The position numbers and the translations under genes were made by a program. Below, one piece after another: positions 8,168-31,500 of a stretch of 64,000 nucleotides of DNA (position 1 is the first letter of the stretch; each line of letters begins with the position of its first letter). Under the pieces are notes generated by a model. The model searched no databases, was not told where the DNA came from, and saw only the letters and a program-made list of their open reading frames with translations. This DNA comes from a virus. The DNA lies in the IMG/VR virus record IMGVR_UViG_3300000095_000002, positions 1,258 through 65,257 of that record, one strand, 5' to 3'.

Positions 8168-9334
8168 ATGTCACACGTTGCTACATTTTTCAATGAGCGG
8201 TTTATCTCCAAGCAAGTAATGGCTATGGTAGATGAAACTGAACAGAATTTAATTAAAAGAAGTAAGTTAATTGACCCGTATTTCCCTACTCAAATGTTTG
8301 ATAGTAGAGATTTTGTAGGTCTATTGACTAAACGAGTTGCTCCTGCTGCTTCGATTGTTGCGTATGGCGCTGAAATTCCATTAGTAAACTTTGGTGGAAT
8401 TGAACGTATGGCAGCTACATTATTCAAGTTGGGTACTTCACGTCTCTATGATGAAGAAACTCAATGGAAAATGATTGAAGCTCAAAATATGGCAATTGCT
8501 AAAGGTATTAGAGTTCAACGAGTTTATAACCCTGACGGAACAGTTACTCCTGGGGCAGATGCAGACTTGGCACGAGCTTTATTTGGAGTAGTTGAAGATT
8601 TACTTAAAGGTATTACTGACCGAATGGATCACATGAAATGGCAAGTAGCTTCTACTGGTGCTATTGATATGAAAGATCCTAAGACTGGTGCATTAGTACA
8701 ACTTGATTTCAAAAAAGAAGGTGTTAATTATAATCACTTCCCAGCTCCTTTGACTCAGACTGGTAATACTGTTACTCCTACTCTAAATAAATGGACTGAT
8801 CATGAAAATGCTCGTGGTCTTGAAAATCTTAGTGATGCAGTAGAAACTTATTATGATACTAATGGTTATGCCCCAGATAAAATTGTAATGAGTCGTAAGT
8901 GTTGGAGAGACTTCTTACATCAGAAGAGTACAAGAGATGCTGCTCGTCAACTAACTACTACTGAATTAGGTTTAGTATCTGCTGATATGGGTAAGAAACT
9001 ATTAGAAGCTCGTGATATTCCTGAAGTAGTTACATTTGAAGAAAAATATCAAGAACAATTACCAGATGGCTCTATTGTAGATGTTAACTTCTTGAATAAC
9101 AATCGAATTGTGTTCTTGAAGAATAACATGGGAATCAGTGCTATCGGCCCAACTATTGAGTCTGTTAAAGAGGTAGTTGGTGGTGGAGATACTAAGATTG
9201 AACCTAAATCTGGTATTTATGTCAGTACTTATGAAGAAAATAAACATCCTGTACATGACGTATCAATGGCAACTGCTACATTTGTACCTATTGTAATGAA
9301 TCCTAAACAACTATTCTCTTGGCAGGTACGATAA
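8168..9334 (+). CDS. Major capsid protein (Phage_cap_E, lambda gpE-like)
   Basis: YFP...APAASIVAYGAEIP...ITDRMDHMKWQVASTGAI...LDF...W...APDKIVMS...FLNNNRIVF, followed by a terminator after the next gene. Confidence 0.9.
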   Translation: MSHVATFFNERFISKQVMAMVDETEQNLIKRSKLIDPYFPTQMFDSRDFVGLLTKRVAPAASIVAYGAEIPLVNFGGIERMAATLFKLGTSRLYDEETQWKMIEAQNMAIAKGIRVQRVYNPDGTVTPGADADLARALFGVVEDLLKGITDRMDHMKWQVASTGAIDMKDPKTGALVQLDFKKEGVNYNHFPAPLTQTGNTVTPTLNKWTDHENARGLENLSDAVETYYDTNGYAPDKIVMSRKCWRDFLHQKSTRDAARQLTTTELGLVSADMGKKLLEARDIPEVVTFEEKYQEQLPDGSIVDVNFLNNNRIVFLKNNMGISAIGPTIESVKEVVGGGDTKIEPKSGIYVSTYEENKHPVHDVSMATATFVPIVMNPKQLFSWQVR

Positions 9335-9795
9335 TGAAGAAGTACACTTTACTAAATAATATTATTACTAAAGATGGAAATATACTTTTTGCTAGGACTA
9401 CTCCTTATATGGAAGGTGAGATTCCTAAAGAGTTTATCAATCCACTAAATGTAATAGTTATAGAAGATAATAGTCAAGCGGTTGTATATAAGCAAACCTC
9501 TATAGATAATACTGTTAATCATTTAAATCCTCCAGATAATACAACTAATTTAGCTCCTAAGTTTTATGATCCAACTAAATTGACTGTTGTTCAAAAAGTA
9601 GATATTAATACCTTAACTTTAGATCAACTTAAAGAGCTTAAAGGTATTGGAGAGAAAACAGCAGTGCAATTAGTATCTAGCAGACCTTATAAAGATTTAG
9701 CTGAATTAACTACTAAAGTTAAACCTCCTACTGGAAAAACTTGGGAAGACTTTAATTTTATGTTTGGTGAGCCTTCTACTATTTCTGTAGTTTAA
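9334..9795 (+). CDS. Helix-hairpin-helix (ComEA/PsbU-like) DNA-binding protein
   Basis: VDINTLTLDQLKELKGIGEKTAVQLVSSRPYKDLAEL. The start overlaps the capsid gene stop (TAATG). Confidence 0.75.
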   Translation: MKKYTLLNNIITKDGNILFARTTPYMEGEIPKEFINPLNVIVIEDNSQAVVYKQTSIDNTVNHLNPPDNTTNLAPKFYDPTKLTVVQKVDINTLTLDQLKELKGIGEKTAVQLVSSRPYKDLAELTTKVKPPTGKTWEDFNFMFGEPSTISVV

Positions 9796-9821
9796 TAATC
9801 TCTAGTACATCTAATTAATCC

Positions 9822-9859
9822 TAAGTATAGTTTGCTAGAGAGCTATACTTATTTTTTTT
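9822..9859 (+). terminator. Rho-independent terminator
   Basis: TAAGTATAGTT-loop-AGCTATACTTA stem followed by T8. Confidence 0.75.
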
Positions 9860-9866
9860 ATCTTAT

Positions 9867-10292
9867 ATGCTCATTCAATCAAAGATTACAACTCTTCAAG
9901 TAGTAAGAGATTGTACTAAAGAAAAACCTCAGATATATTTGAGAAATTCTAAACATTCTATAAGAGATACTATTCCTGTCCTATTAGATATAACGTCTAA
10001 GGAACCTATCAAATTAAACAATATAGGATTAACATTTAAGTTATATCATCAATTGAGTGGATTACTACTTAAACAATATGATACTACTAGCTTTGTGTTT
10101 CCTATAGTAGAAATGAGTTCTATAAGAGCTATTCTCTATATAAATGGAGTAGATATTAAGACCTTCTATCAAAATAAGACTTTAGAGTTTCCTAATAAAC
10201 TTCAGAGTATTAGCTACGCTTTAGATATATCCGTTAAGACTACTCAAAATATTTCAAATTATACAGACTCAGGAGAATTTTATGTCTATTAA
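9867..10292 (+). CDS. Hypothetical virion-associated protein (BppU/Ig-like beta fold possible)
   Basis: Clean ORF ending YALDI...DSGEFYVY, a C-terminus resembling those of 10282 and 17357. Confidence 0.5.
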   Translation: MLIQSKITTLQVVRDCTKEKPQIYLRNSKHSIRDTIPVLLDITSKEPIKLNNIGLTFKLYHQLSGLLLKQYDTTSFVFPIVEMSSIRAILYINGVDIKTFYQNKTLEFPNKLQSISYALDISVKTTQNISNYTDSGEFYVY

Positions 10293-10683
10293 AACTACTA
10301 CTTATAGAGAATGGAGAGATAATCGTTTAGCAGGTTCAATAGTTCCAAGATCAGATGATTTACCTTTAGGAGTTAGTTTAGAATCTATGGATAATCCTTC
10401 TATCTTAGGAGCTGGAGTATCTATTAATTTCACAGTATTTACTAATACTTCTACTACTAACTTTGGTGTTGGCAATTATGGTACTTATAGTGGGTTATCT
10501 CCAATAGTTATAGAACCTAACAAAATCATCTTTAAAGGTTTAGTAGAAAAAGAAGTTATTCAATCGAAGTTAGACCCAAAGCTAGATTCTTCTATTTATT
10601 TCGTTACTAAAGCAGTGTTTCCAGATACAGCAGAAGTAACTATAGATGAAGGATATTTCACGTCCAAAGTTACATTGATATAA
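10282..10683 (+). CDS. Hypothetical virion-associated protein
   Basis: Overlaps the previous gene, is beta-rich and ends TIDEGYF. Confidence 0.5.
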   Translation: MSIKTTTYREWRDNRLAGSIVPRSDDLPLGVSLESMDNPSILGAGVSINFTVFTNTSTTNFGVGNYGTYSGLSPIVIEPNKIIFKGLVEKEVIQSKLDPKLDSSIYFVTKAVFPDTAEVTIDEGYFTSKVTLI

Positions 10684-10693
10684 GAAAAAAAAT

Positions 10694-11449
10694 ATGAAAC
10701 TTAAGATTATTAATAGAACTCCATTAAAAAGTAGAGCTATACCATTTATTGAGTTACAACCACGTTATCTCTATTGGTTAGACACTAATACTGAGATTGA
10801 TGTAGAAATTATACGAGAGAAAGATGCTCATTACGAAGTTAAATTATCTACTAACTTTCCTGATTCTCCTGTAGGTATTAGAACTTGGTTTATCTATAAG
10901 GAACACGTAGAAGTAATAGAGGATAAAAAGAAATCTACTAAGAATATACTTAAAACTGATTATTACTATCAACTAGATAATAACTATCAACCTTACACAT
11001 CTTGTTTCTTAACTTGTGTAGCAATGCTCTTATCTTTCTATAAGGTGAAGGTAACGCCAGATGAACTATATAATAAATGTCTAGATTTAGGATACGATAG
11101 ATTTTCTCATCAGGATATTGAAGCGATTATCAAAAGTTATGGTGTTAACTATTATGCTACTACTTCTGGTACTTTTGAAGAATTAAAAAACACTCTAAAA
11201 ACTGCTCCTGTAATTATTGGTACTTATCTTACTGAAGCTAGTCACATTGTTTTAGCAGTAGGTTATGATAATTCTGCGTATGACGATAGAGGAGCTTTTG
11301 TAATTAACGATCCTAATGGAGAGTTTACTCATAACGGCTATATCCATACTCCTACAGCAGGAAAAGAGACTTTATACTCCTACGCTCTTATGGCTCAGGT
11401 AGCTGCACCAGAAGGAGATGGAAATTATTGGTTACATTTACCGGAATAA
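10694..11449 (+). CDS. Endolysin, peptidase C39-like
   Basis: YYYQLDN...SCFLTCVAMLL...HIVLAVGYD...INDPNG. The N-terminal HYEVKL...TWFIYKEHVE domain is typical of cyanobacterial cell-wall proteins. Confidence 0.8.
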   Translation: MKLKIINRTPLKSRAIPFIELQPRYLYWLDTNTEIDVEIIREKDAHYEVKLSTNFPDSPVGIRTWFIYKEHVEVIEDKKKSTKNILKTDYYYQLDNNYQPYTSCFLTCVAMLLSFYKVKVTPDELYNKCLDLGYDRFSHQDIEAIIKSYGVNYYATTSGTFEELKNTLKTAPVIIGTYLTEASHIVLAVGYDNSAYDDRGAFVINDPNGEFTHNGYIHTPTAGKETLYSYALMAQVAAPEGDGNYWLHLPE

Positions 11450-11453
11450 AACA

Positions 11454-11738
11454 ATGAAACATAAAATGAAACGTTCTCTATATTTCACTAAAACATTTCT
11501 ATTTTCTCTTTTACTTTATCTTTCAGTTATTTATACTCCATTAATTAACTTTGCTTATGAACATAAATTAAGTAGAGGAGATTTAGAAGCAATAGTTATT
11601 GGTACTTTTAGTTTCTTTGGAGTTAGCAATGGAAGATTAAGAGTTAACGAAGATATTAGAAGAAGTGCTGAAACTGGAGAACCTATAGGATTACTTACAA
11701 CTAAAGTAGTTCCTAGTAAGAGAAAAGAAGAGGTGTAA
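11454..11738 (+). CDS. Holin (2 TM, putative)
   Basis: Two hydrophobic segments, a basic C-terminus, and a position right after the endolysin. Likely starts are 11454 and 11466. Confidence 0.6.
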   Translation: MKHKMKRSLYFTKTFLFSLLLYLSVIYTPLINFAYEHKLSRGDLEAIVIGTFSFFGVSNGRLRVNEDIRRSAETGEPIGLLTTKVVPSKRKEEV

Positions 11739-11742
11739 GTTA

Positions 11743-13287
11743 ATGGTTATATTTAGTCTATTACTTGAAAAAGTTGAAGATGATTATTACTACCGATATA
11801 TTAGCGACAACGTTACTTATTATATACCTTCATACAAAACTGATAGACTAAATAAACCTATTAGCGAATTTGAGTCTTTTGAAGATTATACTAATATTCA
11901 TGAGTTTTTAGATAAAGTCTATATTGATGGTGAAAATAGAGAAGATTATATAGTTAGTGAAGCTAAAGATACTAAAGAAATATCTATAACTATTATTGGA
12001 TATAAATATGAAAACTTTATTGTTCTTATAGGAAGTCATAAATCTGATGTTCTATTAGAAGAGACTTTATTTAAAGAAGATTATATATTTCTAATTAGAT
12101 GGAGAGATAGTAAAGAAGATTTAATAGATGATATATCAGATAATGTAGTTAATCTTTTAGGATATAGCAAACGAGAAATACTATCTAAACCTTATATAGA
12201 ACTTATACATCCTGACGATATTGATTTATTTAAACAGGAATTAGCAGAACATCTTAGAGAAAGTAGTCCTTCTTTTTATCAAAGATATAGATTACTAGCT
12301 AAATCTGGAAAAGCTATTACTATTCTCGACCATTCATGTCAGATCTTTAAAGGAGATAGTAAAAAGACGATTGGTTATCTGAGAGATATTACTGTAGAAA
12401 CTCAAATGTCTACTAGATTAACTGAGTTAGTACACTTAGATGAAGAAGATTTTAATAGTAGTCTCTTAATTAAGATTGAATGGGATTCTGAATATAGAAT
12501 AGTACGTTGGAATACTGAAGCTCAAGATTTAATTGGTTGGGGTCACGAAATCCTTGGTAAAAGTATTAGAGAACTCAATTTATTTTCTGATGCAGATTCT
12601 ATTAAAATGCAAGGTCAATTCAAACGATTATTTGCAAAAGAAGTAGATAACGTAATTAGTAGTTTTAGAATTCAAAAGAAAGAAGGTGGATTTATAGATA
12701 CTAAATGGTCTAATCGTTTAATTACTAGAGAAGGTAAATTAAGAATTGTATCTTCCGTCATTGATAAAAGTCAAGAAACTCTATTAACTACTCGCTTAGA
12801 TGAAATGGAAGGTCGTTCTGATTTACTTCTAAAAACTTTAGAAAATACACATCTATCTAATGATGTCTTTACTAAATTAATGCACAACCCCCTTACTGGA
12901 AATCCGGAAGGACTTATTAAAGCTGAGATTATCATCAGAAAGTTAGAAGAAGAAATTACTAGATTGAATAATACCATCTTCTACAATAACGATAATAATC
13001 TAATGAGTGATATTGCTTTCCTAAAAAATGAAGAACGTGTATTAAAAGATAAAATTAATAAAGTAGAAGAAAGTAATAAGAAGTTGTCTGAACAGTTAGA
13101 TGATTTATTAAACGTAAATATATTAACTCTATTTAAGAATTTAGATTTTAAGAAAGTTGTAGCAATAATTATATCTGGTTATTTAATATTTGGTCAGTTT
13201 GTACCAGCTCTATATCCAAGATTAGTTAAACCTCTATTTCAAGAATATAACAGAGAAATGAAAGAGTTAGAAAGTGGTAAAAAATAA
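11743..13287 (+). CDS. PAS-PAS / coiled-coil / C-terminal TM protein in the lysis cassette
   Basis: PAS1 is LLGYS...IHPDD...YRLLAKSGK...GYLRDIT. PAS2 is IEWDSEYRIVRWNTEAQDLIGW...KKEGGFIDTKW. TM is VVAIIISGYLIFGQFVPAL. No kinase or cyclase domain is present. Confidence 0.8.
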   Translation: MVIFSLLLEKVEDDYYYRYISDNVTYYIPSYKTDRLNKPISEFESFEDYTNIHEFLDKVYIDGENREDYIVSEAKDTKEISITIIGYKYENFIVLIGSHKSDVLLEETLFKEDYIFLIRWRDSKEDLIDDISDNVVNLLGYSKREILSKPYIELIHPDDIDLFKQELAEHLRESSPSFYQRYRLLAKSGKAITILDHSCQIFKGDSKKTIGYLRDITVETQMSTRLTELVHLDEEDFNSSLLIKIEWDSEYRIVRWNTEAQDLIGWGHEILGKSIRELNLFSDADSIKMQGQFKRLFAKEVDNVISSFRIQKKEGGFIDTKWSNRLITREGKLRIVSSVIDKSQETLLTTRLDEMEGRSDLLLKTLENTHLSNDVFTKLMHNPLTGNPEGLIKAEIIIRKLEEEITRLNNTIFYNNDNNLMSDIAFLKNEERVLKDKINKVEESNKKLSEQLDDLLNVNILTLFKNLDFKKVVAIIISGYLIFGQFVPALYPRLVKPLFQEYNREMKELESGKK

Positions 13288-13700
13288 TGTGGCGACCATT
13301 TGATAGTCCAAAGAAAAGACGTGAAAGATTTATAAAAAAGAATAGTCCGTATCTAGTTCCTTTAGCTGTAGGAGCATTAGCAGCCGGAGCAGATGAGAAC
13401 GCTACTGGTAGACAAAGACTTAAAAGAGGATTGGTCACTGGTGGTCAAACTTTTGCTGCAATGAAAACTGCTGGAGTATTCGCTAATAGAAAAAGTAAAG
13501 AAAACTATTATAAAGGTACTATTCTACCAACTATTCAACAAGCTAAAGGAATAGCTAATAGTGGAGTAAACGTCAGTAGAGAACTGAGAGGTAGAGAAGT
13601 GTGGAATCTCAAAAAATCAGGTTTATTAAAAAAAGCTAAAAATATTAAAAAAGAAGCGCAATTACTTCTCCCTTCTTCTAGTAGACCTAAGATATTTTAA
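13287..13700 (+). CDS. Basic Gly/Ala-rich protein (same family)
   Basis: YLVPLAVGALAAGA flanked by K/R-rich segments. Confidence 0.65.
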   Translation: MWRPFDSPKKRRERFIKKNSPYLVPLAVGALAAGADENATGRQRLKRGLVTGGQTFAAMKTAGVFANRKSKENYYKGTILPTIQQAKGIANSGVNVSRELRGREVWNLKKSGLLKKAKNIKKEAQLLLPSSSRPKIF

Positions 13701-13702
13701 TT

Positions 13703-14296
13703 ATGTACAAATATATAACGATTGAAAAAATTCAAAGAAGTTTAGGTAGGAGAGCTAATGTATTTAATAGTGATTTGATTCCTAGTGACAATGTATCTGT
13801 TATATCTAGCAATATAGATGTCGAATTAATACATGATTTGATAGTTAGAAATGAAACTCTTATAGATACGTATTTCGGAATGATTTATGTTCTTCCTATA
13901 GATAGTAGAGATATTCCACTTATCGAACCTATATTAGAAGGTTTTGTTATTAATGATTTAATGATGAGAGTTTATGACCAAGGAATGATTGCTTCTCTAG
14001 GAGGAGATGGAGGCTTTGGTTCTACTATATATCAAAAAGCTAAGGAATTACTTAAAGGATATTTTATTGGTACGGGCATTTATATACCAGGAATATCAGC
14101 TCCAGAAGATAGTGGATATGGAAAAGAAGCCTATCCTTTACTTCTACCTTATACACCTCAATTAACTAATAGAAGAGATAATATTACTAGGAACTATACA
14201 GTAATAGGAACGTATCAAAATAATAGAAGAAATATGGAATTTGACTTTAGAGAAAATAAGTCTAGAGTATTTGGTATAGAAGAAAGATATTGGTAG
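13703..14296 (+). CDS. Head-tail adaptor, Mu gp36/DUF1320-like
   Basis: YITIEKI...LIDTYFGMIYVLPI...YQKAKELLK. Confidence 0.65.
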   Translation: MYKYITIEKIQRSLGRRANVFNSDLIPSDNVSVISSNIDVELIHDLIVRNETLIDTYFGMIYVLPIDSRDIPLIEPILEGFVINDLMMRVYDQGMIASLGGDGGFGSTIYQKAKELLKGYFIGTGIYIPGISAPEDSGYGKEAYPLLLPYTPQLTNRRDNITRNYTVIGTYQNNRRNMEFDFRENKSRVFGIEERYW

Positions 14297-14308
14297 TAAA
14301 TAAAAATA

Positions 14309-14803
14309 ATGAGAAAGAGAACTACTTTTATAAACACTACTAACTCGTCTTACTTATTCGGTAGACCTAAGAAACCTTCTAGACTTAAAAGTGCTGCTAT
14401 AGGAGCTGGAGTTGGGGCTGCTGCTGGTTATAATGCTGGAGGAATAGCTGGTGGGGTAATGGGTGGTTTACGTGGAGCTACTGATAGTTTTGTACGTAAA
14501 AATGGATATAACTCTCTCCTTACTAGAGCTAAACGATATGCTTCTACCTCTTTCGCTGGTAAAGTCTCTAATGATGCTAAGACTATTGGTACTCTCTCAG
14601 GCGCTACAGGTGGATTGACTGGAGCTGTCAGGGGAGGTATTCGTGGACTTAAAGGTGGTTGGAAAGGTGCTTTAGGTGGAGCAATAAATCAAGGAGCTAA
14701 AAGTGCATGGAAAGCTGGTAAGAGAGGAGCTGCTATTGGCGCAGGTATTGGTGGACTTAGAGGATTAAAGAGAAAGAAAAACTATTTACTTCCTATCTCT
14801 TAA
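14309..14803 (+). CDS. Basic glycine-zipper protein (same family)
   Basis: SSYLFGRPKK followed by repeated GxxxG segments (AAIGAGVGAAAG, GAAIGAGIGG). Confidence 0.7.
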   Translation: MRKRTTFINTTNSSYLFGRPKKPSRLKSAAIGAGVGAAAGYNAGGIAGGVMGGLRGATDSFVRKNGYNSLLTRAKRYASTSFAGKVSNDAKTIGTLSGATGGLTGAVRGGIRGLKGGWKGALGGAINQGAKSAWKAGKRGAAIGAGIGGLRGLKRKKNYLLPIS

Positions 14804-14839
14804 AATTAGCAATATAGTTTAATTCTCTTCACTCTTAAA

Positions 14840-15166
14840 ATGACTAAACCTAAATGTAGATATCGACAAAGATTTAATACTTGGAAAAGAAGTAGAGAAG
14901 CTTCTGAAGTTAGTAGAAGTCTTATAAGAAAAGCTCTTTATCTATGTCCAATCTGTAGAAATCCATTATCTCTAGGAGAAGGTCACTTATTCCACATCAT
15001 ACCTATTAAACTACTATCTCAATATAATTGTATGAGTTTAGTATCTAGCGAATATAATCTTCTATATTCTTGTAAGAAGTGTAATTTAAAGCAGAGAAGT
15101 GAGATATATACTGAATGTCTAGAAGATAATCTCTTAACTCTATGGAATAAACTAAAAAATAAATGA
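14840..15166 (+). CDS. HNH endonuclease
   Basis: CPIC...HLFHIIP...NLLYSCKKCN. Confidence 0.8.
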   Translation: MTKPKCRYRQRFNTWKRSREASEVSRSLIRKALYLCPICRNPLSLGEGHLFHIIPIKLLSQYNCMSLVSSEYNLLYSCKKCNLKQRSEIYTECLEDNLLTLWNKLKNK

Positions 15167-15169
15167 ACA

Positions 15170-15679
15170 ATGAATAACGCACTAAAAGTAGACAAAATAT
15201 TTAATTGGCAATCTAATTATCAAAACTCTATAAGAAATAATAATTGTCACATACAAATATATTCTCCTCTATATGATTTTGATATAACTACAAAACGTAT
15301 AAAAGAAAATCGTAGATATCTAAATCCTAAAGAATATGAATTAGTCATAGCTAGTGATTTTGATGATCATAGTAATGGCTCTATTACTACTGAGATTTAT
15401 TCTCTAGCATCTAAGGTTATATTAGAAAACACTTTATTAGTTCCACATACTATCTGGATTAATAAATATGAACAACATCATGAAGGTCTATTCAATTTCG
15501 ACTATAAGATTTCTTTAGTAGAGATAAACGTTAATTATATAGGAAATGAGAGTTTTACTTATTATCCTATATGGCAAGATGAATTAGACTACTTAATCAC
15601 TGGAGATCCTATATATTTTAGAGAAGTTTGCTCTAGTGGATGGAATCAATTATATGAAAGATGGAAGAGTAAATTGTGA
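15170..15679 (+). CDS. Hypothetical protein
   Basis: Clean ORF with the pattern CHIQIY...VIASDFDDHSNGSIT. Confidence 0.55.
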   Translation: MNNALKVDKIFNWQSNYQNSIRNNNCHIQIYSPLYDFDITTKRIKENRRYLNPKEYELVIASDFDDHSNGSITTEIYSLASKVILENTLLVPHTIWINKYEQHHEGLFNFDYKISLVEINVNYIGNESFTYYPIWQDELDYLITGDPIYFREVCSSGWNQLYERWKSKL

Positions 15680-16440
15680 GTGATATAAAGTTTGTAGGAC
15701 AAGTTTCTTCTACTTATCTATTTGGTAGAGGTAGAGGAAAAGATAAGCAAAAAAGAAAACGAAGAATTATTAACGCTCTTAAAGGTGCCGGACTTGGAGC
15801 ATTAGGCGGTGCAGTAGGAATAAGTCTAGCTATGAAAGGTGATAGTAGACTATTACGTCATAAGATTATTGATGGTGCAGCGGGTCTAGGAGCATCTGCA
15901 TTAGGTGGAGCAGTATTAGGTAATGCAGTTTTCGATAAAAAATCTGAAAGTAAAAGTCCACTAGGTAGATATAAAGCTTATCAAGAGAAACAAAATAAAA
16001 AAAAGTATAAATCTAGTATTGGTACTCAAAGTTTAGCAGGAGTTGGTGCGGTAATAGGTGCTAAAGCAGGAAGAATAGGTATGCTTACAGAAGCTGCTAA
16101 TCATATACCTATAGGATTAAAAATAGATAAAAACATATCTCAAGAAAAACAACGATTTAATAAAGAAGGAGCCAGAAGTAGATTTGGTAAGATAGTGCAT
16201 GACGCAAAAGTAGGTGCTGCTAGTACGTCTGGAACTTTAGCTTTAAACAATGCAGTTCAACAAGTTCTAAAAGTTAAAAAAACTGGAAATATTAAAAGAG
16301 ATGCTCTAAGTGCAGTTGGTAGAGGTGTCGCAGGTGCTATCTATGGTGGAGCTAAAGGTGTGGTTATAGGTGGTAGTCTTGGCTCTGGTGTAGGTTTAGC
16401 CAGAGGATTCGTTCAACCAAATAAAAAGAAAAGTAAATAA
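15676..16440 (+). CDS. Basic glycine-zipper protein (same family)
   Basis: SSTYLFGRGRGKDKQKRKRR followed by several GxxxG helices. GTG start. Confidence 0.7.
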   Translation: MSDIKFVGQVSSTYLFGRGRGKDKQKRKRRIINALKGAGLGALGGAVGISLAMKGDSRLLRHKIIDGAAGLGASALGGAVLGNAVFDKKSESKSPLGRYKAYQEKQNKKKYKSSIGTQSLAGVGAVIGAKAGRIGMLTEAANHIPIGLKIDKNISQEKQRFNKEGARSRFGKIVHDAKVGAASTSGTLALNNAVQQVLKVKKTGNIKRDALSAVGRGVAGAIYGGAKGVVIGGSLGSGVGLARGFVQPNKKKSK

Positions 16441-16518
16441 CAATTCTTAAATCGAATAATAGAAATTAGTTCTCATTAGATAATTTAGTATAAAAGTAAA
16501 GTTAAAAATTAAAATAAT

Positions 16519-17346
16519 ATGGCAGATAATAAAAGTCCCGCTCAAGCTACAAATTTACTGAACTTCTTAAAAGGTTTAGTCGTTACATCTCCGGTTAATA
16601 ATAATGTTTTCATTGGTCTATCTACTACTCTTCCAACTGCGGAAGGTGGTAATTTCACTGAACCTGCTGGATCTACGGGTTATGCAAAAGTTCAATATGC
16701 AACTGGTGTATCTAACTTCTCAGAACCTAATAAACGTTCATGTTTCAATCAGCAAGAAGTGAAGTTCAATGTTGCTCTTACTCAATATCCTACTGTAGTT
16801 GCTGTAGGTATATTCGATGAAACTAGCGATACCGTTCCCCTCTACTTTGGTTCTATTGATTTAGGTCGAAGTATTGAAACTGGTGATAGAGTATATTTTC
16901 CACCTCAAGGAATCATTATTCATGAAGTTCAACCTACGTTTACTAAATCTGATTATTTAGCAAATGCACAATTGAAACTCTTACGTAATGAAACTTTTGA
17001 AACTCCATCTGAGATTTATTTAGCTCTTGGTACAATGACTCCTACTATGACTGGAGATATTGGTGAACTTACTAATACCAACTCACCTGGTTATGTCCGA
17101 ATTCCTATTCCTTGTAATGCAGCTAATTGGCAAGTTACTGGACGAACTGCGACTAATCTTATGGAATTAGTATTTCCTATGGCAACCGCACCTTGGGAAA
17201 ATATTAAATCGTTTGCTTTACATAGAAGTGCTACTGGCAATACCGATATGCTCTACTGTGGAAGTTTTGGAGAGAACAACACTAAAGTTATTTACCTCAA
17301 AGATAAATTACGAATTCCAGTAGGCGCAATTACAGTTTCAGAATAA
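16519..17346 (+). CDS. Virion structural protein made of two tandem copies of a minor-tail-type domain
   Basis: Both halves read [FY][IL][GA]L.T..PT..G...E......GY......N...+.F..A......[AS][VF][GA]+.....LY.G. Confidence 0.7.
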   Translation: MADNKSPAQATNLLNFLKGLVVTSPVNNNVFIGLSTTLPTAEGGNFTEPAGSTGYAKVQYATGVSNFSEPNKRSCFNQQEVKFNVALTQYPTVVAVGIFDETSDTVPLYFGSIDLGRSIETGDRVYFPPQGIIIHEVQPTFTKSDYLANAQLKLLRNETFETPSEIYLALGTMTPTMTGDIGELTNTNSPGYVRIPIPCNAANWQVTGRTATNLMELVFPMATAPWENIKSFALHRSATGNTDMLYCGSFGENNTKVIYLKDKLRIPVGAITVSE

Positions 17347-22598: not shown

Positions 22599-25500
22599 AT
22601 GGATACTGCGAGTAATATTAAATTTAATGTAGAAGGAGATGATAAGTTTTCTCAATTTCTAGAGAAGACTCAAACTTCCCTCAAAAATCTAAATGAAAAA
22701 TCTCTTAAATTCTTTAATGAAAATCTTAAAGATGTAACTAAAAATCTACGTGGAAAACAATCTGCGGTAGAGAAATTAGTAGGAGAATATAGCAATATGA
22801 CTAAAAGTAGTGAAGGTCTTGCTACTTCTACTGCTAAATTAGGTAAGTCAGTTACTCTTTTAGGAGCAGCTTTTGGTGCATTAAATAATATAAGTATTGC
22901 TCAAAGTGTCTTTAAAACAATAGGTAAAGGATTCTCAGGCATTCTCGACTCTATTGCTATGACCAACACTGGTATAAATGCTATGGCAGCTAGTGGATTT
23001 GATGGTACACCTCTAATGAACTCTTTTAATGAGATAGGAGCTGTCTTATCAGGTAATCAAGAAGCGATAGATAATTTTACTGCCAGAGCTACTGGAGCGT
23101 TTAACCAATTTGAACAAAAATTAAATGAAGTTAATATTATCTTCGGTTTATCTCAAGAAAGATTGAGTGAATATGGACAAGCATTACAAGATGGATTAGA
23201 GAAGAATCTTAAAAATAGTGTTTCATCTTTAACTGCATTAGAAGCTGCGTATCAAGCTGCGTCTGCCGGATTTACTGAATTTCAAGAGAACCAGAAAGTA
23301 GTTGAGTTAGCAGTTAAAACTAATAAAGCTGCTCCTGGTAGTAATCTTTATTCGGTAGGTGGAGCTATTGGTAAAACTTCAGGTATTTTAGGTACAAAAG
23401 ATATCGCAGAGTTAGAGTTAGTAGCAGCTAAAGCCGTTAAAGCAGAAGCAGATGGTATGGCGACTCTAGCAGAAATGAACGATTACTTGCCTGATATGTA
23501 CTCTTCATTAAAAAATGCGGGTATTGGAGTAAGCGATTTAGTAGACCAGACACAAGGTTTAGTAGTTGCGTTTACCAAGTTAGGTGCTAAAGTTCCAGAA
23601 ATTACTACTCAAATGGAAGCTTTTAGTAGAAATACTATTAGTAAAACTCCTGAAGCTCAGAAAGCATTAGAAGGTTTAGTAGATGCACAAGGTAAAGCTA
23701 TAACTCTCAATCAACAATATTTTAAAGAAAAAGGTATTGTTCAAGGGATTCAAGATTTTGCGGAAGCAGTAGGTTATAACACTGAGAAGATTAAAGCTGT
23801 GTATAACGAAACTAACTCTTTTGCTTTTGCAATGAAAGTCTTAGCTCAAAACGGTAAATTAGCTAGAGACTCAATTCAAGGCATTAGTGAAGTTACTTCA
23901 GATAGTCTTACCAATGCTTTTGATACTGCAACTTCTTCTTCTCAAGCTAAAATGGCCCAAATTACTCAATCTTATGATGAGATAATGATTTCTTTTGGTA
24001 GAGCATTCCAAGAGAGAAGTAAGGAAGGTGTCAATTCTATTGAGTGGTATAAAGAAGTATTAGTTACTTTTAAAGAACCTTTAATTAATTTAGCGAAAAG
24101 TTCAGTTACATTCTTTGATAATCTAAATAAAGTGACAGGCGTATTAGGCTCTGTCGCTAAGATGGTAGCAGGAATAGCTGGGACAATACTTAGCTTTAGA
24201 GCTTTTAATTTAGTTTTAGGTGGGATTACTAACGGATTTAAAGATTTAAGGAAAGAGTCAGGAATTATCCAAGACTTATATAAATCTAAAACTGGATTAT
24301 TATCTATTGGTAAACAAGTCTTAGGTATAGATCAACAGCATTTACTAAATCAAGACCGTATTAATAAAGCGATTAAAAATTCTACTTCATTAGAAACTGC
24401 TTTAAAAGAAAATATAGATAAAACTTCTAGTAGTAGGCTTTCTTCATTAGTCGGAGTTAGACAAGAGATAGACTCTATAGTTCAAAGAGATAAAGCTGTT
24501 GTTGCTAGCCAGAAAAATATTGAAAAACTCCAAGAGAAAGTAAATCAAAAGAAAGAAGTTAGCACTAAAGGTCAGCAAGATATTACTGCTACTGAAAATA
24601 GAATATCTACTTTAAGTAATATTCAAGAGAAAGCTAGAGCGGCATTAATAGACGATAAAGAAAATGTTGCTAGATTTAAACGTCTTAACGAGTTAGAAGT
24701 TAAAGAAGCAGCAATTAGACAAAGAAATTTAGGAAATCTTGAATTAGGTTCTTTAGCTCAAATTAATCGTGAGAAGTTGAAGCTACAAAATTCTTATACT
24801 ACAACTACTTTACGTAAAGTACAAGAATTAGAAAATCAGAAGACTGCTCTAATCAATAAAGCAGAACTAACTAGAGACGACAAACAAAAAGTCAGAAGCT
24901 TAGTCAGAGAACAAAATGCTCTTAAACGTGAAGATAGAGATAAAGATAGAACTCCTCTTACTTCTGATGCAAAAACTAAATTACAAGAAACTCAAGCTAA
25001 TGTTACTCAAAAGTTAAGAGAAGAAGAGTTAATTTTAGACTCACAAAGAGAAAAACAAGCAGTAACAAATAATAAATTAGTTCAAGAATCTACTAAATTA
25101 GAAGCTGCTAAAGCTCAACAATTAGAAAGGACTAATAGATTAACTCGTACTACAACTGAATTACTAACGTTACAACAAGATTTAAACCAAAAGAAAAATA
25201 GTTTAGATCGTGTAAATTCTGCTGTAGCTACCCAACAAGAGCGTTTCTATCAGACTCAAAATGCTTTACGTAGAGAAGAAGCAAATTTAAATAAGATTAG
25301 AAATAAAGATTCTGCTGAATATCAAAAGCAATTAGCAGTAGTACAACAATTACAGACTAAAGAAGCTACTTTACAAGAAAGTTTAAATAGAGCAAAAAAT
25401 ATCCAAGCTGAATCTCAACGTAAATTCAATCAAACTGACTTTGATACTAGAAGGAAACTAATTCAACTTACTAGAGATCAAGGTTTGGCAGATGGTTCAC

Positions 25501-28500
25501 TAATAGAAATGAGAACTAGGTCTGGTACTGTAGCTTTAAAGAATAACGTAATTAATAGAGCATTAGTAGCCACTACCGAAGGTTATGGTAAAGCTATCAA
25601 TTCTCTTAAAAATCCTACTCAATCTTTAACTAATATTCAAGATGTTTTAAGAAATAAGTTTATAGACTTAAGAACTGGTATTAGCCAAGTATCTACCGAT
25701 GGAGCTAGAAGTCTAACTGCTTTTTCTACTGTTGCTAAAGCTAAATTCGCTGAAATTGCTATTGGCGCTCAATTATTTGGTGAGGCTATTAAAGGTGCGT
25801 TAATCTCTAGTGGTATTGGATTGATAGTAGCTGCAATAGTAGGTCTTGGAGCTAAGATGATTCAGTTAGTTGGAGATTCTAAGAAACTAGACAATACTTA
25901 TAAAGACTTTAATACTACTCTAGAAGCTTCTGCTACTAAATTTGATAGAGCTAATATCTCATTTGAAAAAGGTTCTCAAGGTATTAGTAAATTCAATGAT
26001 AAGATAGAAAATTCTAAAAAATTATTTGGAGAATTAGAACCTAGCGCATGGGAACAAATTGGAAATACTATTGGTGGAGCAGTTAAAACAATATTTAACT
26101 TTGATAAAGCTGTAGTAAAAACACTTACTAACATTGTCACTTTTGGTCAAGCTTCTAAAGTATTTAAATTCTTTGGAGATGGATTAAAAGCGGTTTGGAA
26201 TAGTTTTTCTGACGCAGACTTTATTAAACGAGCTGAAAAGATGACTCGTATATCAGATTTTATACAAGATTATGAAGTAGCTCTTAGAGGTCAAAATAAA
26301 GAATTAGCAAACGGTAATCTATTAACTGAAACTTCTAACCAAAAGATCAAAGCTAAAATGATCCTTACTGGAGAAGATTTAGAGAGAGAGAAAGGTGCTA
26401 ATAAAGCTCGAATTAATTCTTTCACTGAAATGGTAGATATCCAAAAGAAAGAGTTAGAGGAACTTAAAGGTAAAGGAGATAAATTAACTGATAGAGATAA
26501 AGCTCAGATTAGCATTCTAGAAGCTGAAATCTCAAGAAGAGAGAAAGTAATAGAAGTTAGTAAAAAGCAATTTGATGATCAACTAAAGTATTATGAAGCT
26601 CGTAATCTTCTATTAGATAGAGAGAATAAGTTTAGTAATACACAAGTTTCGTTAGAAGAGATCAAAGGATTACAAGATGAAGTAAATAAATCTCAATCTA
26701 CTTTAAACGCAAATATTAGTTCAGGATTAGATATTTACTCTAGTTCTATTAAAGATTCTCAAGCTAAATCTAAACAATTTTTATCTGATTTGAAAGATGG
26801 AAGTTTAAGTGTTAAAGCTACTCTTAAAGATCTTGGTGGTGAAATTTATAAGGTTGGTGAAGATGGTAAAGTCATTAGTCAACTTCCTGAAGATGTTCTT
26901 AAATCTATTGAAACTACTTTAAAAGGTAAAGAGATAGATGGCAAGAAATATTCTTTAGAACAGGTACTTAACCTTAAAGAAACTAGAGATGCGTTAACCA
27001 AAGCTGGAGTAGAAATTCCTAAAGACTTAAGTGTATTAGCCGATAAAATGAAAGCTAGTTATAAAGCTTCTGAAGGAGAACTTCAATTAATTAATCTAAA
27101 AGAACTAGAAAAAGATTTATCCAACTTCTCTACTTTATCTGATAAATACCAAGAAAAGAAAAGGCAGTTCTTATCGACTACTAAAGATGATATTGGAGCT
27201 ACAACTTTCTCTACCTCAATTAAAAAGTCTTTAAGGTTAGCAGAAACAGATCTACAAGGCTTTCTAAACGCTCTAGATGCGTCTTCTAAAGGTGCAAATA
27301 AGTTCATTACTGCGTCTACCCAAAAGTTTACTAGACAAGCTTTAGAAGGAACGTTAAACCTTACTGAAGGGTTAAAAGAGCTAGGTAAAGTAGAAAGTGA
27401 AATTGAATCAAAACAATTAGAAAAACTTAAAACATCTATCACTGGTAAAAATAAAGATGAGATTTTAGCTGCTCTTAAAGAGATTGGAGTAGAAACTGAG
27501 AAGACGTTAACAGCAGAATCAATTGACTTTAATAAATTTGAAGAAAATATCGGAACTTTTGTTGAAGGGCTAAATGCTGTAGCTGAATCAGGAGAACAAA
27601 GTAATGAAGAAATAGCTAAGAAGTTCGAGTCTTTCTATAATCAAATGAAAGGCAAGGTAACTCCTGCTGCTTACAAAACTTTAACTGAAACTCTTATTGG
27701 TTATGAAAAAGCTGCTAGCGAACAAAGAATAAGTAATATAACTTTGGAAACTAACGCTTTAGAACAACAGAAGAAATATGGTTTAGTGTTAGAAGCTGAT
27801 TATATCAAAGAGATTAACGCTCTTAACATTCAAACTACTGAAGAAAATATAAAAAACAAGCAAGTAGAACTTAAAAGATTACTTTCACTATATAAAGAAT
27901 CAGCTCCTCAAGTAGCAAAAGCTAAAGCTGAATTAGAATCTTTAGAGTTAGACCTTAAAGGTAAGAAATCTAATAATCCTGTAGAAATTGCTCAAGCTGA
28001 GAGTAAAGCTAAATTCGATATTCTTAAGAAAGATTTAGAGTTAGGTAAAGTAACTAGGAGACAATATATAGAAGAAGAACTTAAAGATTCTCAACTTCTA
28101 TATCAAACTCAATTAAGTGAAAAACAAAAGACTTTATCTGAATTAATGAAAGATGAGGTTAAAAATGCTAAAGCTATAAAAGCTCTTAGAAAATCGATGG
28201 AGTCTGATGAAAAAGATTTCAATCTAAATATCTTAGAGATTAATAGGAGAAGAATAGAAGAACAATTTAAAATTCAGACTAATGCTTTAAGCAGAAGAGA
28301 ATTAGAAGCTAGAGAAAACTCTCTCAATGGAAATACTAAAGAAGAATTAGAATCTATTAGAAAACTAGAAACTGATAAGATTAATCTCAATATCAAAACT
28401 TTAGAGTCTAGATTAGCAGTAGAAAAGCAAGGAAGTGAAAAGTTCTTAGAAATAGAGAAACAATTATTAGAAGCTCAATTATCTCTTAGAGAAACTCAAG

Positions 28501-31500
28501 TTAAACAATCTAAAGATAGAACTAATGAGGAAATCGAGAGAAAGAAAAATGAGTTATCTACTATTGCAGCTCTAGAAGAAAGAAATAATCTAAATGGTAC
28601 TACTAACAAAAACTTAGAAAATACTAGACAACTAAGAGAGAAAGAAATTCAATTATCTATTGATTCTATCAACTCTCAAATTGCTTTGACTGAAAAAGGA
28701 AGTAAGGAACGATTAGCTTTAGAGCAACAATTAATCTTAGAAGTTAATAAGTTACAGAAAACTCAGTTAGATAACCAAAAAGAAAGATTAGAACAATCTC
28801 TAGAAGATAGAAGAAAAAAATTAGAAGCTAGACAAATTGATTTAGAAAAGGCTTCTATTAGAGGAACTACTGAACAAGACATTGAAGCTACTAGAAAACT
28901 AAAAGAAGAAGAAATTACTTCTACTATTGAATCTCTCAAACAGAGGTCTTCTCTGTATAAAGAAGGTAGTAAAGAAAGAATTGCTCTTGAACAAGAAATA
29001 GCTAAAGAAACTCTTAAGTTAGATAAACAAGTCTATGAAAATCAAAAGTCTAGATTACAAACTCAAATAGATAATAAGAAGAAAGCTTTTAGAGATACAC
29101 AACTTCAATTAGAGAAGTTAATGGTACTTGGGACTTCTACTGAAGATTCTAAGAAAGTTCGTGCTGCTAAAGAAGAAGAAATTCAAATCACTATTGAAGG
29201 TATCAAGAAAGAAATTAATCTAACTAAAGAAGGAAGCACTCAAAGAAAAGATTTAGAACGTTCATTAAGAGAAGAACTCTTAAAGTTAGACAAACAAAGA
29301 ATAGCTAATAAGAGAGAATTTATAGATGAAGAGATATCTCTAGAAAAAACTAAGATTACTAAAATTCAGTCTTTATTGGAACGTTCAACTATCGGAGGAA
29401 CTTTTGAAAAAGATTTAGAGAAGATTCGTGAGCTAAAAGAAAAAGAAACTCAGATTACTATTAACTCTATTCAAAAACAGTTAGCTACTTATAAGGGAAA
29501 TGCTAAAGAACGTCTTGCTCTAGAAGCTCAATTAACTCAGGAAATTACTAAACTACAAAAGATTCAATTTGGTAATAAAGAAGAGAAACTAAAATCTCAG
29601 TTGGAAGACGCAAAGAACAAGTTAGATAAGCAAATTGCATTAAAAGAGTCTAGCTTAATTAATGGTGCAACAGAACAAGAACTCAAAATAGTAGAAGAAG
29701 CAAAGATAAAAGAAACTCAATTTACTATTGATTCTATCAGGAAGCAGATAAATCTCTATAAAGTTGGTAGTAAAGAACGTCTTGCTCTAGAAGCTAATTT
29801 ACAGAGAGAAATCAATAATCTTAGAAAACAAACATTAGATAAAGAGAAGAACTTAATTCAAAATACTCTAGAGTTTAAGAAAACTAAGATTGATATTACA
29901 AATATCGAGTTAGAAAAGAAACTTCTTAGAGGAGATATTGATAGAGAAAGTTTTGAAGATAAGTTAACTGCTTCATCTCAGAAAGTTAATCTCTTACAAC
30001 AAGACGCATTTACCAAGCAACTTAAACTATATCAAAAAGGTAGTAAAGAATATTTAGAGATACTCAAAAATTTATCTCAATTACAAGTTGATTATCAAAA
30101 ATCTGTAGTAGATAAAGCTATTAGAAATATTGATAGAATTACTAAATCTCAGAATAATTCGATAGAAGCACAAAAAATCTCTATTACTAATCAACTAAGT
30201 TCTAGTGATTCACTTACTAAAGAAATTCAAGAGCAAATTAAACTTGAAGATTCTAGAAGTTCTGTAATTAAAGCTACCTCAGATTATCAAGTAGGACTAT
30301 TAGAGTTAACTAAAAGATCTACAGGAGATATTGAGAAGAGAGCTGAGATTGATGTACAAATTGCTGAACTAAAACAAAAAGCTCTATTAGAAAGTCAAGA
30401 GATTGAGATTAATAGTATAGAGAACAATGCGTTAATTAATGAAGCTGCTTTAGAAAGAGAGAAAATTCAAATATCTCTCAATAGATTGGAGTTAGACAGA
30501 AATAAAATTCAGACTGAAGCAGAACTAAGAAAAGCTAGATTGAATAAGTTAGATTCTGAGTCTATTAATGCACTTCAATTACAGTTAGACTCTATTAACA
30601 ATCAATATGACGCTCTTGGTAGAAGTGAGAACTTAATCTCTACTCAAATAGCTAATCAAGCTGAGATTAGTAGAAATCAGTTAAAAGTAATTAAACAGCA
30701 ACAAGATTTAGCTCAAAAGAATTCTGCGTTAGACGTAGAGCAAGCTAAGCAAAACGTTATTATCGCAGGTTACGAAAAGCAGTTATCTCAACTAAAAGCT
30801 AAAGGTGATTTAATACAAGCTAACGTAAATAAAGAGAAAGTTATAGGAGATTTATTAACTAAAGCTTATGACGCTCAAATTGCGTTACTAAATAGTAGAA
30901 AAGAATTGATGGACTCAACTTTAAGTTCTATTGATTCTCTATATAGTATTGAACAATCAATGGCGAAATCCGACTTAACTAAAGATAAATTAGCTAAAGA
31001 ACAAGCTAAAGATAAACTGACTTATCTAGAATTTCAACAAAAAGTTGAGAATGAAAGCTTCAATCTAGAAAAAGCTAAAAATAAGATAGTTAGAGAAAGA
31101 CAAAAAGTTGAATTAACAATCGCAGAGTTAAATGCTAAACAAGCTCTTGCAATGTCTAAAGCTGAAGAAGCTAGAACTAATGCTCGTAAAGATGCTACTA
31201 ATGAAGAGAAGTTAGCAGCTAAATTAGCAGTAGAAGCAGCAGAACAAGGTATTATTGCAGCTAAAGCTAATAGGGACATTAATCTAGAACTTATAAAAGT
31301 AGAAGAACAATCAGAAAAGAACAAAGAAGTAATTAATGCTCGTAATCAAAGAAATCAAAGACTACAAGCTGAACAATCTCTTGCATCTTTAACTTCTAAT
31401 ACTACTGATGATAGAGAAGTAAAAGGAAAAGCACAAGAGTATAGAGAACTTGATGAGAGAAGTATTAGTAATACATTAAAATCTACTTCTAACTTAAATA

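Follow-up and report, generated by a model that had tools for sequence, protein, structure and literature searches.

Why should a phage place among its late genes one that encodes a sensor without any recognizable output? The question is raised by a 64,000-nucleotide stretch of viral DNA (positions 1,258 to 65,257 of the IMG/VR virus record IMGVR_UViG_3300000095_000002; the whole stretch is referred to below as the window). There, an open reading frame (ORF) on the + strand, starting with ATG, encodes a 514-residue protein with tandem PAS domains, a coiled coil and a C-terminal membrane helix. The PAS gene belongs to a strongly conserved, virus-only family; in every related contig it follows the same two genes, for a C39-like peptidase that is a candidate endolysin and for a small holin-like protein with two transmembrane segments (2-TM protein), and it is tightly coupled to the latter. 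A first-pass annotation, made from the letters of the sequence, took the PAS protein for a regulator of lysis. In the form that we put forward, the PAS protein is an antiholin or lysis timer that would modulate the opening of the membrane by the holin-like protein. Gene neighborhood is what suggests it, and it is offered as a tentative proposal that may well turn out to be wrong.

A tandem-PAS membrane protein without an output domain

The PAS gene is closely fitted to its neighbors. Four nucleotides separate its ATG at 11743 from the end of the upstream small ORF at 11738 (a spacing remarked on in the first-pass annotation); the final codons of that ORF contain a Shine-Dalgarno-like GAGGTG, and the PAS gene's own stop overlaps the ATG of the downstream gene in the sequence TAATG. 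The ORF is confirmed as real, with the architecture first described for it: two PAS domains, a coiled coil and one C-terminal membrane helix (Table 1).

Membership in the PAS domain superfamily is established by profile scores above curated cut-offs and by the fold. The first domain, PAS1, matches Pfam PAS_3 (PF08447) over residues 130-208 with E 7.8e-17 and 61.8 bits (cut-off 25.6), and PAS, PAS_9 and PAS_11 likewise exceed their Pfam cut-offs there; NCBIfam TIGR00229 (sensory_box) matches in two stretches with E 9.2e-20 and 71.1 bits against a cut-off of 22.9. The second domain, PAS2 (about residues 242-341), scores poorly in Pfam, where its match to PAS_4 (E 0.033) falls under the cut-off. 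It is accepted because of its strand and helix order in an AlphaFold2 (AF2) model, because Foldseek aligns the region with the tandem of FixL, and because hhalign places it in register with PAS1 (E 6e-4 over 90 columns). Many multi-PAS proteins align over residues 131-350 in an exhaustive search of representative proteins.

(A technical note: the AF2 model was built from an alignment of 22 family sequences and is of modest confidence, with a mean predicted local distance difference test score (pLDDT) of 66.7 and values of 74-90 in most of the PAS cores.) The model consists of a β-rich part (residues 1-100), PAS1 (115-215), PAS2 (243-341), helices (342-456) and a final helix (469-511); a five-stranded antiparallel sheet with flanking helices occurs twice in tandem, and each PAS passes straight into a helix. 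Foldseek matches the model to the tandem PAS-A/PAS-B dimer of FixL (8js5/8js6; 252-256 columns, E 1e-14, TM-score by target 0.70-0.73) and also aligns the tandem to DosP and PpsR. Is there a third PAS domain at the N-terminus? Residues 1-100 are modeled as two strands, helices and three strands, with residues 3-11 forming a strand; hhalign aligns them weakly with PAS1 (E 0.023, 44 columns, with ISDNV common to both), and Foldseek aligns 380 columns of the model to the triple-PAS PpsR (4hh2), yet with a root-mean-square deviation of 27. A third, degenerate PAS domain is possible on these grounds. Farther along, a heptad signal is found in residues 380-414 (score 0.68-0.72) and 415-456 (0.55-0.65), parted by YNNDNN, and the protein has a single strongly hydrophobic stretch (Kyte-Doolittle 19-residue maximum 2.07, residues 472-490).

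What follows the PAS array has no recognizable output, so that the protein is not a sensor kinase, a GGDEF/EAL protein or a helix-turn-helix (HTH) regulator. The first-pass annotation had already noted the lack of a kinase, GGDEF or DNA-binding domain, and searching the whole 514-residue protein against Pfam bears this out: no kinase, GGDEF, EAL or HTH/DNA-binding family appears at E ≤ 0.1. NCBIfam yields no output domain and, beyond PAS, just one sub-threshold match in the PAS region. PADLOC gives no match, PHROGs gives two weak matches alone (E 0.033 and 0.083) and no structural family, and the strings NCRFL, GGDEF, GGEEF and C..CH are absent from the protein. A resemblance of LMHNPLTGNP, which begins at residue 379, to the linker preceding GGDEF domains had been read as a hint of capture from a host PAS-GGDEF gene. 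The idea of a PAS-GGDEF remnant has been abandoned as unsupported: the protein has no PF00990 match, and PF00990 is missing from all 22 cellular relatives whose domains are listed (9 from a word-indexed search, 13 from others), their outputs being kinase, HD-type, GerE or none. P383-L384-T385 is nevertheless invariant in the phage family and must therefore be functional.

Two further identities can be set aside. The LOV motif GXNCRFLQ carries the adduct-forming Cys of that subfamily; the PAS protein is without NCRFL (as noticed from the start), and its sole Cys, C199, lies in a β strand. Heme PAS domains of the FixL/DosP type have a conserved proximal His on the F-α helix; here H170, the only His in helix 157-172, is not conserved, and there is no CXXCH. 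Other residues, such as H197 or C199, might still bind heme. An i-spanin, finally, has its membrane helix at the N-terminus and its coiled coils in the periplasm, and a partner gene encodes a lipoprotein. An i-spanin (Rz-type) identity was considered and rejected: the membrane helix of the PAS protein is C-terminal, it has no N-terminal signal-like segment, and the product of the next gene is devoid of Cys and hence of a lipobox.

Conservation and distribution of the family

Conservation, measured over 22 family sequences, is greatest outside the PAS domains. In segment 373-420, 25 of 48 residues are invariant and the mean entropy is 0.42, as against roughly 1.0 for the PAS domains. Next in order are the first 40 residues together with residues 101-120; the PAS cores are intermediate, and the second heptad segment, the membrane helix and the tail stand lowest. 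Residues 1-100 as a whole have 21 invariant positions, and the second heptad segment (421-456) has 4 of 36. Judged by this pattern, the membrane helix looks like an anchor and segment 373-420 like the working surface of the protein; neither Pfam nor a C-terminal search against shorter proteins finds known relatives of that segment. Within PAS1, strands G, H and I hold runs of invariant residues: four consecutive residues, 177-180, in strand Gβ, and also D196-H197-x-C199 (window 12328-12339), which is the same in all 22 members and includes the one Cys of the entire protein. D196-H197-x-C199 might be a ligand, metal or redox site.

Where else does such a protein occur? A word-indexed search finds 33 full-length relatives (513-520 residues, 53-91% identity), all metagenomic and on contigs of up to 325 kb; the other 9 matches are cellular multi-PAS proteins at 23-30% identity. 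The exhaustive representative search finds one full-length representative and one fragment of the family; its remaining 14,057 matches at E ≤ 0.001 cover the PAS region alone and are cellular multi-PAS sensors at 23-32% identity, with top matches spread over unrelated taxa (Gaiellaceae and Haliangium, for example). Among solved structures, the PAS domains nearest in sequence are those of PERIOD, ARNT and HIF (E 1e-5 to 1e-3). The whole protein is matched by none of 50,697 deposited phage records, and the genomes of 185,579 prokaryote species (one genome each) contain no relative. Searching those deposited phages with the PAS region at E ≤ 10 brings up 7 records, weak or irrelevant, and a cellular multi-PAS probe (P0044) brings up 4 of the 50,697, none of them informative. 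Against shorter proteins, none of 115 candidates passed for residues 345-514, and the PAS region (105-345) has as its sole match a 172-residue fragment of its own family; the ESM Atlas offers no usable match to residues 345-514. On the evidence of these searches, the PAS-PAS-coiled coil-TM architecture is confined to one virus clade. Within IMG/VR, 11 contigs carry the PAS gene, and theirs are the genomic contexts examined here. Every contig that extends as far as this locus has the PAS gene, which makes it a core gene of the clade: sampling the clade with the C39 protein and with the upstream 133-residue protein recovered the same clade and one distant contig (L027), and no variant lacking the PAS gene.

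The host of the phage is likely a cyanobacterium. Its major capsid protein (8168-9334; Phage_cap_E, PHROG 29) has its nearest counterparts in two Pseudanabaena phages, Pam2 and PA-SR01 (31% identity, with 93% of its length aligned). Relatives are found in the ground: contigs of a biocrust metagenome run contain one whose peptidase, 2-TM and PAS genes together have about 92% identity to the window (reckoned from listed differences) and which has a high word depth, though contig depth is a poor measure of abundance, and a soil run yields a 3.1-kb contig at about 87% identity. For positions 10694-13700, no RNA data set came up as a holder. The phage, an uncultured one, is large (about 150 kb) and probably lytic; two related records (G001 and G002, which hold loci L001 and L008) have 151,199 and 146,537 bases with direct terminal repeats. 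CheckV rates these two records 48-49% complete despite their terminal repeats, and the window's own 65-kb record 21%; its completeness estimates look unreliable for this clade.

The PAS gene and its neighbors: a lysis cassette?

The C39-like peptidase gene, the 2-TM gene and the PAS gene follow one another in that order in 11 of 11 related viral contigs, and the gap between the 2-TM and PAS genes is 4-7 nt in 12 of 12 sequences, the window counted. The small ORF can be read from an ATG at 11418, overlapping the peptidase gene by 32 nt. A second ATG, at 11454 and 4 nt past the peptidase stop, matches a conserved start, MK.KMKRSLY, in 11 of 11 aligned relatives (30 invariant columns), and at five loci (L004 and L007-L010) the small ORF starts at the corresponding Met or within two residues of it. 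By this comparison the gene most likely starts at 11454. Its 94-residue product is basic at the N-terminus and has two hydrophobic segments, the one strong and the other short, ahead of a charged C-terminal part that is conserved, with the motif GR.RVN.DI..SAE.G. It thus has the sequence features of a holin, being small, with at least one membrane helix and a charged C-terminus, and encoded beside a candidate endolysin gene.

Table 1. Positions in the window of the PAS gene, the parts of its product and the adjoining genes
Feature	Position	Strand	Evidence
PAS-PAS-coiled coil-TM protein, 514 aa	11743..13287	+	ORF list, Pfam, NCBIfam, AF2, Foldseek
N-terminal domain, residues 1-100; PAS-like strand/helix order, possibly a degenerate third PAS	11743..12042	+	AF2, hhalign, Foldseek
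PAS1, residues 115-216; PAS_3 type, closes with DIT motif at 215	12085..12390	+	Pfam, NCBIfam, family alignment
PAS2, residues 242-341; divergent PAS	12466..12765	+	AF2, Foldseek, hhalign, NCBIfam
Most conserved segment, residues 373-420, with PLT motif and helix EGLIKAEIIIRKLEEE; candidate effector surface	12859..13002	+	Conservation, heptads
Variable second heptad segment, residues 421-456	13003..13110	+	AF2 helix 420-456
C-terminal membrane helix, residues 470-493, then a 21-residue charged tail	13150..13221	+	Kyte-Doolittle, AF2
Candidate endolysin, a C39-like cysteine peptidase of papain fold; beta-rich domain at its N-terminus	10694..11449	+	Pfam, PHROG, AF2
Small membrane protein, 94 aa, holin-like	11454..11738	+	ORF list, alignment of relatives
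Basic protein, 137 aa, with Gly/Ala hydrophobic stretch; optional neighbor	13287..13700	+	ORF list, TAATG overlap

The three genes lie within a + strand run that extends from the major capsid gene to neck and tail genes. Since no terminator-like site is found in 9000-17000, co-transcription with the late genes is likely; a promoter scan is uninformative (31 sites versus 37.5 ± 5.5 expected). PA-SR01, the nearest cultured phage, has counterparts of the capsid gene and of the gene at 13703-14296 and none of the peptidase, 2-TM and PAS genes. Their absence from the corresponding place marks the block as an accessory insertion in a structural operon rather than a part of the core head/neck set. 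The 137-residue gene downstream of the PAS gene is found by tblastn in 6 of the 11 loci and missed in L001, L004, L006, L008 and L011; in the biocrust run, the contig of a deeply covered variant departs from the window just after the PAS stop (with a loose end at 13289).

(A second block absent from PA-SR01, at 14309-16440, varies in order and copy number among the relatives. It comprises paralogous Lys/Arg-rich Gly-zipper proteins with S[ST]YLFGR near the N-terminus (14309-14803 and 15676-16440), an HNH endonuclease (14840-15166) and a 169-residue gene. Farther on, at 22599-32255, a 3218-residue ORF occupies the place of the PA-SR01 tape measure gene and has no tblastn similarity to it at E ≤ 1e-3.)

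Is this, then, a lysis cassette? The label is plausible, and it is the more likely reading of the sequence. The peptidase matches Pfam Peptidase_C39_2 (E 5.5e-16) and PHROG 10051, 'endolysin' (E 9.9e-19), and by tblastn it matches 22 deposited phage records, all of them cyanophages (including phages of Synechococcus, Prochlorococcus, Acaryochloris, Leptolyngbya, Arthronema and Microcoleus), several with the annotation endolysin. Its AF2 model (pLDDT 62, low confidence) matches papain-like and C39 domains, and the pseudomurein endoisopeptidase PeiR at E 3e-3. Five Pfam families of lysin type were looked for in five related records, including the two with terminal repeats: C39_2 is present as a single copy in every record, and Phage_lysozyme, Amidase_2, SLT and Peptidase_M23 are each present in none. 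A small, co-oriented TM gene directly follows the C39 gene in three of seven contexts: the PAS clade itself, a Microcoleus phage, and the viral contig L027, the latter two having the pair without a PAS gene. In the Microcoleus phage the C39 gene is followed by a 2-TM gene of equal size (106 residues) and a like two-segment layout (pairwise E 0.049). In L027 (3746-5684) the gene for a distant C39-like peptidase of 280 residues overlaps, by 4 nt, a downstream gene for a 55-residue TM protein; an integrase gene comes next. In S-SRP02 the adjacent TM gene is present but on the opposite strand. (The annotations of the 22 peptidase relatives conflict, ranging over endolysin, C39 peptidase, carboxypeptidase and cysteine protease; L027 has a sigma-factor-like gene upstream and resembles one compact end of a temperate phage.)

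Several observations weigh against the lysis cassette and against a place for the PAS protein in it. The block lies inside a structural run, and in three of the seven contexts (A-HIS1, Lbo402 and TR020) no TM gene adjoins the peptidase gene; the peptidase of Arthronema virus TR020 is encoded between capsid and tail tubular genes, and that of A-HIS1 beside a virion structural protein. The whole region is collinear in all the relatives, and the conserved adjacency of the three genes is therefore of little weight. For the small protein, Pfam, PHROG, NCBIfam and PADLOC all give no match, and a sequence search of solved structures with the peptidase found nothing. The holin and endolysin labels, which derive from annotation and position, are unproven, and what ties the PAS protein to the holin-like protein is neighborhood alone. 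The membrane helix (4 of 24 residues invariant) and the tail of the PAS protein are among its least conserved parts, which argues against a specific helix-helix contact with the holin. The protein bears no cofactor signature: a LOV motif and a CXXCH are both absent, and helix 157-172 is without a conserved His. Around the one other PAS gene of a deposited phage whose context was examined, that of Sinorhizobium phage Phosso, the neighbors are hypothetical genes, with no annotated lysis gene. What survives of the lysis cassette of the first-pass annotation is the tight coupling of the PAS gene behind the 2-TM and peptidase genes; the name given to the cassette is less secure. (A complex prediction for PAS residues 340-514 with the 94-residue 2-TM protein, using family alignments, scored 0.00 in two runs and counts neither way.)

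If the PAS protein does not time lysis, what might it do? It could share the operon while serving some other membrane-tethered late function, such as superinfection exclusion, control of the host membrane or thylakoid, or counter-defense. The protein is core to its clade, strongly conserved and virus-only, no search indicates its target, and its conserved cytoplasmic segment 373-420 is without known relatives; even so, this is unlikely, there being no positive pointer to any such role and no PADLOC match, and a function shared with the 2-TM protein would better account for the close coupling of the two genes. The PAS domains themselves suggest a different activity, that of a decoy: a membrane-tethered protein without an output, pairing with a host PAS kinase or other PAS protein so as to block or rewire its signaling, with the lysis-type neighbors merely incidental. 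The relatives outside the family are all cellular multi-PAS sensors; the closest solved domains, PERIOD, ARNT and HIF, act through PAS-PAS pairing; the invariance of residues 177-180 in strand Gβ means that both faces of the sheet are constrained; and phage proteins that interfere with host signaling enzymes are reported (PMC8085984). A host-takeover factor would nonetheless be out of place in a late run of structural type without a terminator-like site, the best-conserved part of the protein is not PAS at all, and neither a donor nor a target among host proteins is identified, the top matches being scattered over unrelated taxa. We regard a decoy as distinctly unlikely.

The same location in the structural run that tells against the decoy, and against the lysis timer as well, would be natural if the block served the virion. 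The C39 peptidase would then be a virion-borne wall hydrolase, and the small TM, PAS-TM and Gly-zipper proteins would be packaged and ejected, acting at infection rather than at lysis. The position of the block between the major capsid gene and conserved neck/tail genes, the company kept by the TR020 and A-HIS1 peptidases, and the basic Gly-zipper proteins around the block all speak for such an entry module. We know of no PAS sensor domain in a virion, however, the PAS protein matches no structural PHROG family, and in L027 the pair of peptidase and small TM genes adjoins an integrase, away from structural genes; an entry module is accordingly very unlikely.

A proposed mechanism, precedents and significance

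How might an antiholin of this kind work? The following scheme suggests itself: 1) The PAS protein would be made late in infection, translated together with the holin-like protein and the candidate endolysin. 2) Its C-terminal helix would anchor it on the cytoplasmic face of the host membrane, a predicted topology that leaves its three PAS-type domains in the cytoplasm, where they could read an intracellular cue: a ligand, the redox state or a partner protein. 3) The DIT-like motif that closes each PAS leads directly into a helix, as in sensor kinases; since each PAS runs straight into a helix, a conformational change would be carried along the helices to the membrane-proximal segment 373-420. 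4) It is segment 373-420, and not the membrane helix, that would touch the holin-like protein at its conserved cytoplasmic tail, or else some other target close to the membrane. What is observed is how the protein is built and conserved, its occurrence in viruses alone, and the order and close coupling of the genes; the topology, the signal, the target and the effect on lysis are, in this scheme, what we infer. One can go further and imagine a clade of soil and biocrust cyanophages timing lysis with a tail-anchored triple-PAS sensor that gates the holin by a redox, energy or light-linked state, with D196-H197-x-C199 as the sensing center and helix 373-420 as the holin-contacting output. So detailed a version is doubtful, and the sensing of diel or redox state, on which the first-pass annotation had also dwelt, is speculation.

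The lysis inhibition system of phage T4, in which the holin T is opposed by a periplasmic antiholin, RI, and a cytoplasmic one, RIII, offers a precedent (PMC11413866, PMC8385771). RI can work while anchored in the membrane, and RIII acts from the cytoplasm. The likeness to RI and RIII is one of logic: a separate phage protein would bind the holin and delay the formation of holes upon a signal. The PAS protein and RI have no relation in sequence or fold, and RI uses a small periplasmic domain to detect superinfection; the putative sensor of the PAS protein is a cytoplasmic PAS array of roughly 350 residues with a C-terminal anchor, and its role is proposed from its neighborhood. A phage receptor with a PAS domain, through which a chemical cue bears on a lysis-related decision, is also reported: VqmA_Phage of vibriophage VP882 (PMC8284805), a soluble transcription factor with PAS and DNA-binding parts that acts on the switch between lysogeny and lysis. 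The PAS protein, unlike VqmA_Phage, has no DNA-binding domain, is membrane-anchored, and is encoded in the late gene run of a probably lytic phage.

Bacterial tandem-PAS sensors are the closest in form. The PAS protein shares the fold and tandem arrangement of FixL (8js5), DosP and PpsR (4hh2), with Foldseek E of 1e-14 to 1e-13, and, like such sensors, has a DIT-type motif leading into a helix after each PAS. Unlike FixL, DosP and PpsR it has no kinase, phosphodiesterase or HTH output and no conserved heme His on helix 157-172, and its coiled coil and C-terminal membrane helix are without relatives outside the phage clade. Among viral proteins, the BFVD database of predicted structures yields 20 PAS-fold matches at E ≤ 0.001, mostly named histidine kinases (a multi-sensor histidine kinase of Agrobacterium phage Atu_ph07 is an example; small PAS-only proteins of uncultured Caudovirales are others); none of them showed the PAS-PAS-coiled coil-TM layout.

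No report of a PAS-domain protein as an antiholin or as a component of a lysis cassette was found in the literature, VqmA_Phage coming nearest. The antiholins known to us respond to superinfection or to membrane energization, and not to an intracellular cue by way of a dedicated sensor domain. The timing of lysis sets burst size and phage fitness. Even if the PAS protein has no link to lysis, there remains a virus-only, strongly conserved, output-less membrane PAS protein to be accounted for. If it does time lysis, it would be an antiholin with a genuine signal-receiver domain, the first of its kind, and its PAS-gated switch would be a compact natural part for signal-controlled lysis. It would also mean that phages can couple the bursting of their hosts to host physiology, for example to the cycles of light and dark, or of wet and dry, in soil crusts.

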